Shown: positions 1,471 to 14,045, counted from the first letter of the stretch. The stretch is DNA of 64,000 bases from Candidatus Omnitrophota bacterium (GCA_022710715.1 JAKLGJ010000002.1:437453-501452), one strand, 5' to 3'. Notes: generated by a model from the sequence alone, not told the origin. Numbers and translations: made by a program.

Positions 1471-2034
1471 ATGAAAAGAGGGTTTACTCTTGTCGAGCTC
1501 ATTGTGGTCATCGCCATCATCGCTATCCTGGCTGCAGTTATCGCTCCCAATGCTTTCAAAGCGATCGAAAAGGCGAAAGTCAGCACCGCGCTGGCGGATT
1601 TCAAGACATTTCGCACTGCGAGTTACGCGTTTTATTCCGACGTGGGAGACTGGCCCAAGGGCTGGAGCAGGGATGCCTATTTCCAATGCGATCCGGACGT
1701 GGGCCATGTGACCAACGTGAACAACTGGGCCGGCTGGGACGGTCCGTACATGGAAAAGATCAAGAGGGTCGATCCCTGGGCCGGGGCATACTGTTTTGAA
1801 TATTTCGACGTGGACGCGAGCGGCCGGCAGGAGTATTTCATCGAGTTTAACACCAAGTGCCATCCTCATGACGGAGCGCACACCAAACAATGTCCGGTTC
1901 CGGTCGGCAGCGCGCAGTTGATCGATGCCAGCGCGGACGACGGCAATCTGTCTACGGGGGCAGTGCGCCGGGGATCGCTCTACTGCGGGGACAGCGGCTG
2001 TCTGGCCTGGGTGATCGTGAAGGATGTTTTGTAA
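1471..2034 (+). CDS. prepilin-type N-terminal cleavage/methylation domain protein (type IV pilin / pseudopilin-like)
   Basis: N-terminus MKRGFTLVELIVVIAIIAILAAV is the canonical class III signal (G|FTLVE). RBS GGAGGG. Confidence 0.75.
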   Translation: MKRGFTLVELIVVIAIIAILAAVIAPNAFKAIEKAKVSTALADFKTFRTASYAFYSDVGDWPKGWSRDAYFQCDPDVGHVTNVNNWAGWDGPYMEKIKRVDPWAGAYCFEYFDVDASGRQEYFIEFNTKCHPHDGAHTKQCPVPVGSAQLIDASADDGNLSTGAVRRGSLYCGDSGCLAWVIVKDVL

Positions 2035-2067
2035 GCCGGCAGCCCGATGGGCAGCCGGTGAGAGAAC

Positions 2068-2102
2068 AAAAAAGCGAAGGTTTTTACGCCTTCGCTTTTT
2101 TG
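2068..2102. terminator. bidirectional rho-independent terminator between the pilin-like gene and the tRNA-fMet 3' end
   Basis: AAAGCGAAGG-TTTTTAC-GCCTTCGCTTTTTTG hairpin with a T-run on the plus strand and an A-run/T-run on the minus strand. Confidence 0.7.
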
Positions 2103-2149
2103 TTATTGGTTGCGGGGGATAGATTTGAACTATCGGCCTTCAGGTTATG

Positions 2150-2785
2150 CGTACTACTTCAGTTTTCACTGAACTGTCTAAATAGACAGTTATGTAGTCT
2201 GGACTATACCTTGACCTTTTGTGTAGGCCCCTGCCATCTAGTCTCTACACCTTCACCATACAGTTTTGCTATGGCGCTTGGCTCGGTATTACCGTGGTCT
2301 CTCAACTTTAGGCTTCACCGAATTTGGCAGGTTATCCATCAACCGTTTCCGGTTGAGGAGCCCATCGGATAACAAATCCCATCGTTCCCTGTAGTCTGCA
2401 GAAATCGGTTTGCGTTGTCTCTTGATTTTTTCAACAAGCGTAACTGTGCTCGTAAAGCCAAGAAAAACGTTCACCGGCATAACGTAGAAGACATGCAAGG
2501 GTTCGATAAACAGAATTGCGAAATCGAAATCTGTTTCTTTATAGCGTTCCCGCAACATGCATCGTCGATTCGTCTTGGTCCTTCTAACATCGATGCAATA
2601 AGCATTTGCCTGAGTATTGAACCAAGCGCTTTTGACTTGAATGCGCAACAGTTTGCCGTTGAGATCGATGGCAACATCATAGGGGAGACGGTCCCCGATA
2701 GGATGCAGCACCGAAAATTCTCGTTTCAGCAATTCTGTAATGACCGCTGATTCCGCAATATCTGCTTTGAGTTTTGTATCCATTG
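2150..2785 (-). mobile_element. group I intron inserted in the anticodon loop of tRNA-fMet (junction ambiguous within a 2-nt CA repeat; U33|C34 is favoured by 5'-exon U and intron terminal G)
   Basis: The minus-strand intron 3' region contains an R-like element GAGACUAGAUGG (2245..2234) and an S-like element AAGGUAUAGUCC (2212..2201), giving a P7 pairing GACUA/UAGUC. There is a GNRA-capped P9-like hairpin CAGUGAAAACUG, and the intron ends in ...GUACG immediately before the exon. Its GC content is lower than the flanking genes. Confidence 0.75.
2289..2783 (-). CDS. intron-encoded putative homing endonuclease, PD-(D/E)XK-like (about 164 aa)
   Basis: ATG lies immediately after the exon (MDTKLKADIAESAVITELLKREF...). 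Motif ...PYDVAIDLNGKLLRIQVKS is compatible with a D...(D/E)xK nuclease core. The ORF tool's N-terminal MEQSGSSSGS is translated tRNA exon. The tRNA-fMet intron of Synechocystis is known to encode a PD-(D/E)XK homing endonuclease (I-Ssp6803I). Similarity to it cannot be verified here. Confidence 0.55.
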   Translation of the reverse strand: MDTKLKADIAESAVITELLKREFSVLHPIGDRLPYDVAIDLNGKLLRIQVKSAWFNTQANAYCIDVRRTKTNRRCMLRERYKETDFDFAILFIEPLHVFYVMPVNVFLGFTSTVTLVEKIKRQRKPISADYRERWDLLSDGLLNRKRLMDNLPNSVKPKVERPR

Positions 2786-2902
2786 AGCCTGACGAGCTAC
2801 CAGACTGCTCCACCCCGCGAATCTAGTGCTGGTTAAGCTGCTTCTCTGAAAGAACAATACACATTATTGTAACGCAAAATCGCTAAAAACAAAGTACTTT
2901 TT

Positions 2903-13972: not shown

Positions 13973-14045
13973 AGCCGGCGGAGGGAATTGAACCCACGAC
14001 CCACGATTTACGAAACCGTTGCTCTACCAACTGAGCTACGCCGGC
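13973..14045 (-). tRNA. tRNA-Thr (anticodon CGU); CCA not encoded
   Basis: Minus strand reads GCCGGCGTAGCTCAGTTGGTAGAGCAACGGTTTCGTAAATCGTGGGTCGTGGGTTCAATTCCCTCCGCCGGCT. It folds as a cloverleaf with anticodon loop UUCGUAA. The T-stem has one U-U mismatch. Confidence 0.8.

Follow-up and report, generated by a model that had tools for sequence, protein, structure and literature searches.

A probable homologue of the Synechocystis tRNA-fMet intron and its I-Ssp6803I endonuclease in the initiator tRNA gene of a Candidatus Omnitrophota bacterium

The closest described relative of the locus considered here is the intron in the initiator transfer RNA (tRNA) gene, tRNA-fMet, of Synechocystis sp. PCC 6803, which carries the homing endonuclease I-Ssp6803I. 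In Scytonema hofmannii PCC 7110 (locus L082), a tRNA-fMet intron of about 244 nucleotides (nt) with a short P1 loop has no open reading frame (ORF), and the endonuclease gene stands free 77 nt downstream of the tRNA. Here we describe a split tRNA-fMet gene on the minus strand of a 64,000-nt stretch of DNA (GCA_022710715.1, JAKLGJ010000002.1:437453-501452; hereafter the window) from a metagenome-assembled genome (MAG) of Candidatus Omnitrophota, interrupted by a group I intron with an embedded endonuclease ORF. We consider it very likely that this intron and its ORF are homologous to the tRNA-fMet intron of Synechocystis PCC 6803 and I-Ssp6803I. Relative to that founding member, the phylum is new and the ORF is placed slightly differently with respect to the P1 helix.

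The Synechocystis intron interrupts the same host gene. We made the comparison through a Synechocystis-like locus, L081, whose protein is 95% identical to the sequence in PDB entry 2OST (I-Ssp6803I). At L081 the insertion point is the same (GGGCU|CAGG...), and the ORF likewise lies in the P1 loop and runs on through the guide sequence. Its ribozyme core shares 70% mean column identity with that of the window, including a compensated P7 pair, and the window's endonuclease is 51% identical to I-Ssp6803I over 136 residues (E=1.5e-42 against 2OST), with the same D...QVK signature. The sizes are similar, at 636 nt and 164 amino acids in the window and 655 nt and 150 amino acids in Synechocystis PCC 6803; the layout differs. 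The AUG of the window's ORF lies 2 nt from the 5' splice site, inside an extension of P1, whereas that of L081 lies about 20 nt from the site, downstream of the extension (GCAAGAUG/CAUCUUGC); the stop codon is a UAA in J5/4 in the window and falls in P2 in L081. The host phylum here is Omnitrophota, the target anticodon stem contains A29:U41, unlike that of Synechocystis, and the window's system is known from sequence alone.

The Scytonema intron shares the insertion site and a homologous core (70% mean column identity), its endonuclease gene being free-standing where that of the window is intron-embedded. The subgroup IC3 introns of Anabaena tRNA-Leu(UAA) and Azoarcus tRNA-Ile(CAU) presumably resemble the window's intron as well, in their anticodon-loop location and compact core of about 200-250 nt and in what we take to be near-identical J3/4-P4, P6 and J6/7-P7 sequences (CAAAUUCGG, CCGAGCCAAG and GAAGGUGUAGAGACUAGA, respectively); they carry no ORF and lie in other tRNAs and at other loop positions. 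The td intron of phage T4, with I-TevI, likewise places its endonuclease ORF in a peripheral loop and has its translation limited by RNA structure, but its enzyme belongs to the GIY-YIG family and its hosts are protein-coding phage genes rather than a chromosomal tRNA gene. Collaborative homing of free-standing endonucleases has been reviewed (PMC3984707), and the window's family also has free-standing members whose predicted target is the site of intron insertion.

An earlier note, made from the sequence alone, had proposed that two minus-strand exons about 636 nt apart join into a 77-nt initiator tRNA. ARAGORN reads the joined sequence as a tRNA-Met(CAU) cloverleaf and, with intron detection on, recovers the gene from the genomic sequence as one split by 636 nt of intron, in agreement with that proposal. 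The split gene was missed by a default ARAGORN run and by the Rfam tRNA model, which in the window returned tRNA-Thr at 13973..14045 alone; either intron mode or joined exons were needed. ARAGORN and Rfam scans found no other initiator tRNA in the 64 kilobases (kb), as had been stated; were this the genome's sole copy, splicing would, as the earlier note argued, be essential. The joined tRNA carries the C1xA72 mismatch, the anticodon loop CUCAUAA and the T-loop UUCAAAU that the earlier note had read, and its initiator marks also include an encoded CCA and A11:U24, which is A-U in 53 of 53 related sequences (alignment columns 13/27). Its resemblance to E. coli tRNA-fMet had been called almost base-for-base; the similarity is real, with 67 of 77 positions equal to the E. 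coli sequence, and the wording slightly overstated it. Of the ten differences, one lies in the D loop and one in the variable loop; the others are in the 29:41 pair (G-C in E. coli, A-U here) and in three T-stem pairs, in which the changes are compensated. In every relative read by eye (loci L001-L057, alignment A2), position 1:72 is mismatched, as CxA, UxU or AxA.

The exact splice junction had been described as ambiguous within a 2-nt CA repeat, with U33|C34 favoured. The ambiguity is real, and it is settled by relatives whose intron starts with UG rather than CA (L051, L054 and L073), which leave U33|C34 as the sole junction that gives a CAU anticodon. In related loci, ARAGORN labels of tRNA-Leu, tRNA-Ser, tRNA-Thr or tRNA-Pro with intron were rejected as mis-parses of the same tRNA-fMet junction.

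Alleles lacking the intron also delimit it. When metagenome contigs were searched for exact copies of the spliced junction together with the T arm, two JGI contigs proved to have an intronless tRNA-fMet, L087:5858-5934 (Ga0315278_10014938) and L088:1831-1907 (Ga0315276_10009916). By manual count, this tRNA differs from the spliced tRNA of the window at two positions and agrees at 75 of 77, and it is syntenic, following eno and divIC genes with 68% nucleotide identity to those of the window. The alignment blocks between the window and the two contigs meet with the same 2-nt CA overlap and exactly bracket 2785..2150. The element is thus present in some and absent from other related lineages, and natural homing targets exist; the two contigs define a candidate substrate, with TCGTCAGGCTCATAACCTGAAGG as the L088 allele.

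The assignment of the intervening sequence to group I held up as well. Rfam model RF00028 matches 2411..2181 on the minus strand with 55.6 bits (gathering score 50), E=2.1e-11, over model positions 1-253. The P1 that Rfam placed at 2411..2382 was rejected, as the real P1 5' strand lies 370 nt upstream, at the exon junction. We built the secondary structure manually for the window's intron, in which every P1-P9 pair is canonical (Table 1), and it contains the P7 helix (GACUA with UAGUC), the CAGU-GAAA-ACUG hairpin and the intron-terminal G that the earlier note had picked out. The structure was tested in alignment A2 of 53 related split genes, on 93 pairs made up of P1-P9 plus tRNA control stems. 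Standard pairs fill 94.9% of cells, a share that falls to 31-42% on sliding the partners by 1-3 columns, and 47 of the 93 pairs show compensatory change; none of 500 shuffles reached the observed values. P4 and P7 are essentially invariant, and the P2, P3, P6a, P8 and P9 helices covary richly. Across these genes the P1-P9 helices either do not vary or change in a compensatory way, and covariation thus shows the ribozyme structure.

At the 5' splice site, P1 pairs 2789-2784 with 2364-2359, and the splice-site pair (columns 36/468) is U-G in all 53 sequences. U2364 and G2363 of the guide pair in P1 with intron positions +2 and +1 (A and C), and A2365-U2364-G2363 could also pair with C34-A35-U36 of the 3' exon to form P10. 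The CA repeat at the junction may exist because U2364 and G2363 serve both P1 and P10. Among relatives, the guide sequence varies alongside the anticodon stem (GGGCU, GGGCC, GGGUC).

Further analysis of the ORF agreed with the suggestion that it encodes a PD-(D/E)XK nuclease. Pfam PF11645 (PDDEXK_5) matches it with E=4.8e-39 and 134 bits against a cut-off of 26.1, ORF residues 1-137 falling on profile positions 1-137 of 138; an NCBIfam search of the 164-residue product gave no match. D8, D36 and Q49-V50-K51 align identically with 2OST and are invariant in 26 homologues. In PD-(D/E)XK enzymes, the residues corresponding to D36, Q49-x-K51 and the N-terminal D8 have catalytic roles. The NCBI record of the exact protein reads 'group I intron-associated PD-(D/E)XK endonuclease [Candidatus Omnitrophota bacterium]', and the protein is encoded on contigs as long as 914 kb. 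The start at the ATG at 2783, MDTKLK, is kept in 26 of 26 homologues and in free-standing copies. A longer ORF of 174 amino acids, from a GTG at 2813 through the tRNA exon, was rejected because all homologues begin MDTKLK, even free-standing ones with unrelated upstream DNA. Compared with relatives, nonsynonymous divergence (dN) is 0.17-0.23 and synonymous divergence (dS) is saturated, with dN/dS about 0.1 where computable. Low dN together with saturated dS indicates that the endonuclease has long been under purifying selection.

The ORF is embedded in the P1 loop, where the ORF-less relatives L037, L049 and L061 have a loop of 3-4 nt instead. Shine-Dalgarno-like bases upstream of its AUG are confined to the AGG of the anticodon stem; the free-standing gene of L042 has GGAGG. 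Codons 1-4 (AUG GAU ACA AA) pair with codons 136-140 (GAU UUG UUA UCC G) in the predicted extension of P1, and the sequence of its 3' strand is missing from free-standing copies such as that of L082. Columns 50/458, the third bases of codon 2 and of Leu-137 and both synonymous sites, are C-G in 32, U-A in 16, U-G in 5 and C-A in none of the 53 sequences (Fisher p=1.4e-9, not phylogeny-corrected), and both states are interspersed in a neighbour-joining tree. Beyond the extension, the reading frame continues through the guide sequence and P2-P5 to the conserved J5/4, GGUAAU, where it ends; many homologues end earlier, at a GUAA tetraloop in P2, giving 145-amino-acid forms. Because the ORF reads through the ribozyme and many homologues stop in P2, conservation of its tail (...LLSDGLL.RKRL.D.L.NSV.P) reflects constraints on RNA, not on protein.

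These features suggest how the locus may work. A precursor of about 713 nt would be transcribed, probably from a promoter of its own and up to a strong terminator hairpin, and the 3' 230 nt of the intron would adopt a compact ribozyme fold (P2-P9). P1 would arise from pairing between the guide UGGGCU (2364..2359) and the last bases of exon 1, the U33-G wobble lying at the splice site, and an exogenous G would attack after U2786. The same guide bases would then pair with CA(U) of the 3' exon as P10, the terminal G at 2150 would be released, and the exons would be ligated into the 77-nt tRNA-fMet. Because the AUG is buried in the P1 extension, no strong Shine-Dalgarno sequence precedes it and the ORF reads through the guide and P2-P5, translation and ribozyme folding are predicted to be mutually exclusive on one transcript, which would keep the level of endonuclease low. 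By analogy with I-Ssp6803I, the enzyme would recognise an intronless tRNA-fMet gene by the pseudo-palindromic DNA of its anticodon stem-loop and cut it there, and repair from an intron-bearing copy would insert the intron and thereby destroy the target site.

We next consider where the element came from. Relatives of the endonuclease, sought in one genome per species, occur in 412 species genomes from several phyla, and the loci examined are the best 80 of these 412. The 80 come mostly from Omnitrophota MAGs, and also from Bacteroidota (cultured Arcicella, Saprospiraceae and Cytophagales), Patescibacteria, Margulisiibacteriota and one cyanobacterium; further relatives, from many cyanobacteria, Hymenobacter and one Planctomycetes MAG, came from a second protein search. 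Of the 80 loci, 73 have a tRNA-fMet gene interrupted at this same position, U33|C34. The earlier note had favoured lateral acquisition from cyanobacteria, which in its recent form would make the element foreign and newly arrived. The intron is indeed lower in G+C than its flanks, as had been observed (0.44-0.48 against 0.51-0.60), and in the literature up to 2012-2014 the homologues of I-Ssp6803I are mainly cyanobacterial. However, low G+C is usual for homing-endonuclease ORFs, and the closest homologues (65-78% identity) are mostly in Omnitrophota-labelled MAGs, whereas cyanobacterial copies are 51-58% identical. In the neighbour-joining tree, which has no support values, the window's copy is nested in an Omnitrophota-dominated clade, apart from a clade of cyanobacteria, Bacteroidota and Patescibacteria. 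Moreover, dS is saturated even against the closest sampled relative, and the exon with A29:U41 is of the local type, common to the intronless syntenic allele. The proposal of cyanobacterial origin was not borne out, and a recent arrival from a cyanobacterium appears highly improbable. Our literature search found no paper on tRNA-fMet introns outside cyanobacteria, and nothing relevant on Omnitrophota introns, collaborative homing at tRNA genes, or PDDEXK_5; hits concerning Thiomargarita and cyanophage had no bearing on the matter.

Among the relatives are introns and endonuclease genes that occur apart. ORF-less tRNA-fMet introns of 218-288 nt occupy the same site in at least 13 genomes from at least four phyla (L082:2107-2983 of Scytonema hofmannii PCC 7110, L060, L052, L058, L069, L072, L078, L049, L061, L071, L042, L065 and L037), and at these loci an I-Ssp6803I-like gene stands free 54-1125 nt downstream on the same strand. 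The combination looks like a natural collaborative homing arrangement. In the tree, these free-standing copies and the embedded ones are intermingled, which indicates repeated switches between the two arrangements. At its end, the free-standing ORF of L037 (L037:3380-3440) has kept GATTTGTTATCCGAT, the P1-extension 3' strand, and this retention indicates that the ORF derives from an intron-embedded copy. At L061 and L063, a duplicated fragment of the tRNA 3' end (...TCCCCGCAACCA) follows the free-standing gene. Four phage-like IMG/VR viral contigs of 4-178 kb (L083-L086, at about 2001-2500) hold a free-standing homologue of 55-59% identity within a tRNA array, its 3' end abutting or overlapping a tRNA-Met(CAU) gene that is initiator-like and has no intron. 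The anticodon stem of this tRNA is GACG/CGUU in L083 and L085, which departs from the usual GGGC/GCCC target. Elsewhere, possible in-frame stops in the endonuclease, AAAATAGGGG in L027 (A2 columns about 370-380) and GATTGATTA in L034 (about 135-145), suggest decay in some copies, with the ribozyme still intact.

The persistence of the protein outside introns, beside ORF-less introns and beside intronless phage tRNA genes, bears on whether the endonuclease is kept for homing or for some host or intron function, for example as a splicing maturase. The latter idea is compatible with the homology to the Synechocystis system and with a functional split gene. It would accord with strong purifying selection across a divergence that saturates synonymous sites, and in fungi some endonucleases encoded by group I introns are known to act as maturases. 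Yet ORF-less introns of the same family (218-288 nt) presumably splice alone, and empty sites are present as homing targets; together with the free-standing copies, these observations make a role other than homing unlikely in our judgement.

The possibly decaying copies raise a different alternative, that the window's locus is itself a decaying or immobile remnant whose ribozyme or endonuclease is dead, the cell drawing its initiator tRNA from an intact gene outside the window. The homing-cycle model predicts endonuclease decay after fixation, some relatives (L027 and L034) have possible in-frame stops, and the genome was inspected over 64 kb only. The window, however, retains intact every ribozyme helix, the splice-site U-G wobble, the bases of P7 and the intron's terminal G; the exons are undamaged, and the ORF is full length, with its motif residues kept and dN/dS of about 0.1. 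In addition, an active endonuclease would have as a target any intronless initiator gene present in the same cell. A remnant is decidedly improbable; the split tRNA-fMet with its embedded endonuclease is real and, judging from the conservation of its parts, probably functional.

Several points weigh against a functional split gene of the kind proposed. In the anticodon stem, G30:C40 and G31:C39 are G-C pairs and 29:41 is A-U, so that it has two, not three, of the consecutive G-C pairs (29-31:39-41) typical of bacterial initiators. The same or a weaker stem (CAAGG/CCUUG) occurs in many Omnitrophota relatives, and the two-G-C stem looks like a trait of the lineage, not a sign of decay; natural initiator tRNAs with two G-C pairs in the anticodon stem exist. 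Scans for consensus promoters and terminators gave nothing, the terminator hairpin having been recovered by folding. Support for the proposed P1 extension comes mainly from a single pair that covaries strongly; the remaining pairs do not vary or do so on one side only, and at several positions 3-9 of the 53 sequences are unpaired. The C-terminal 25 residues of the endonuclease are set by the ribozyme sequence and may be non-functional. Finally, we infer splicing, translation of the ORF and cleavage all from conservation.

Table 1. Features of the split tRNA-fMet locus, in window coordinates
Feature	Position	Strand	Basis or remarks
tRNA-fMet 5' exon, 34 nt, through U33	2786..2819	-	CGCGGGGUGGAGCAGUCUGGUAGCUCGUCAGGCU (2819..2786); direct reading; joined exons are tRNA-Met(CAU) in ARAGORN; intronless L088 aligns up to 2784
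tRNA-fMet 3' exon, 43 nt, C34 through encoded CCA	2107..2149	-	CAUAACCUGAAGGCCGAUAGUUCAAAUCUAUCCCCCGCAACCA (2149..2107); direct reading, ARAGORN; 98% identity to intronless allele
Group I intron, 636 nt, C+1 (2785) to terminal G (omega-G, 2150)	2150..2785	-	ARAGORN intron mode; RF00028; empty-site comparison with L087 and L088
Homing-endonuclease ORF, 164 amino acids plus UAA stop (conserved J5/4 GGUAAU)	2289..2783	-	ORF listing; PF11645; PDB 2OST
P1 5' strand (AGGCU|CA region), 5' splice site after U2786	2784..2789	-	U2786-G2362 wobble; columns 33-37 with 467-471 99.2% paired, n=53
P1-extension 5' strand, UGGAUACAAA; UG of AUG plus codons 2-4	2773..2782	-	Pairs with 2376..2366; covariation
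P1-extension 3' strand, UUUGUUAUCCG; codons D-L-L-S-D, residues 136-140	2366..2376	-	Pairs with 2782..2773; covariation
Internal guide sequence, A-UG-GGCU (P1 3' strand)	2359..2365	-	Window structure, all pairs canonical; G457-G459 invariant
Ribozyme core, P2-P9	2150..2358	-	Pairs canonical in window; covariation in 53 sequences
P2	2358-2336	-	Capped by GAAA
P3	2331-2325/2236-2230	-	
P4	2321-2316/2288-2283	-	
P5/P5a	within 2150..2358	-	Capped by GAGA
P6/P6a	within 2150..2358	-	
P7	2243-2239/2206-2202	-	
P8	2229-2213	-	
P9.0	2198-2194/2157-2153	-	
P9a	within 2150..2358	-	
P9b	2172-2159	-	Capped by GAAA
16-base-pair hairpin, A-run on one side, U-run on the other	2065..2104	.	Fold energy -21.9 kcal/mol, z=-7.1
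Candidate -10 box, TACAAT	2866..2871	-	Weak, putative; aligns with TGGTATAAT upstream of intronless L088 allele

The tRNA gene is preceded, on its own strand, by the enolase gene and a DivIC/FtsB-like gene, and a pseudopilin-like gene at 1471-2034 (+) converges on it. The hairpin that follows the CCA is a probable bidirectional intrinsic terminator between the tRNA and this convergent gene. Upstream of the intronless allele stands an extended -10 box.

A broader reading goes beyond this locus, and we offer it tentatively, as possible rather than likely: that much of Omnitrophota and lineages of other phyla make their initiator tRNA only by self-splicing, that the AUG in P1 acts as a switch, and that all stages of the formation of such an intron are preserved. 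If this were true, translation initiation would depend on a group I intron at the scale of a phylum, with an endonuclease under long-term purifying selection; pairing of the AUG within P1 would be a switch between splicing and endonuclease translation; and the stages of the proposed pathway would be an endonuclease free-standing by an intronless phage tRNA-fMet, one free-standing by an ORF-less intron, and one embedded in the intron. As standard tRNA annotation misses the split gene, such genomes appear to be without an initiator tRNA; once the intron is recognised, many MAGs from uncultured phyla regain the call of an essential gene. The finding also widens the range of the only characterised bacterial family of PD-(D/E)XK homing endonucleases, previously described as mainly cyanobacterial, to 412 or more species genomes, with members in Omnitrophota, Bacteroidota, Patescibacteria, Margulisiibacteriota and phages. 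Natural variants of enzyme and target (anticodon stems UCAGG, CAAGG and UCGGG) are at hand for studies of specificity, and the embedded and free-standing arrangements, together with real empty sites, offer a system on bacterial chromosomes in which the assembly and persistence of mobile introns can be studied.

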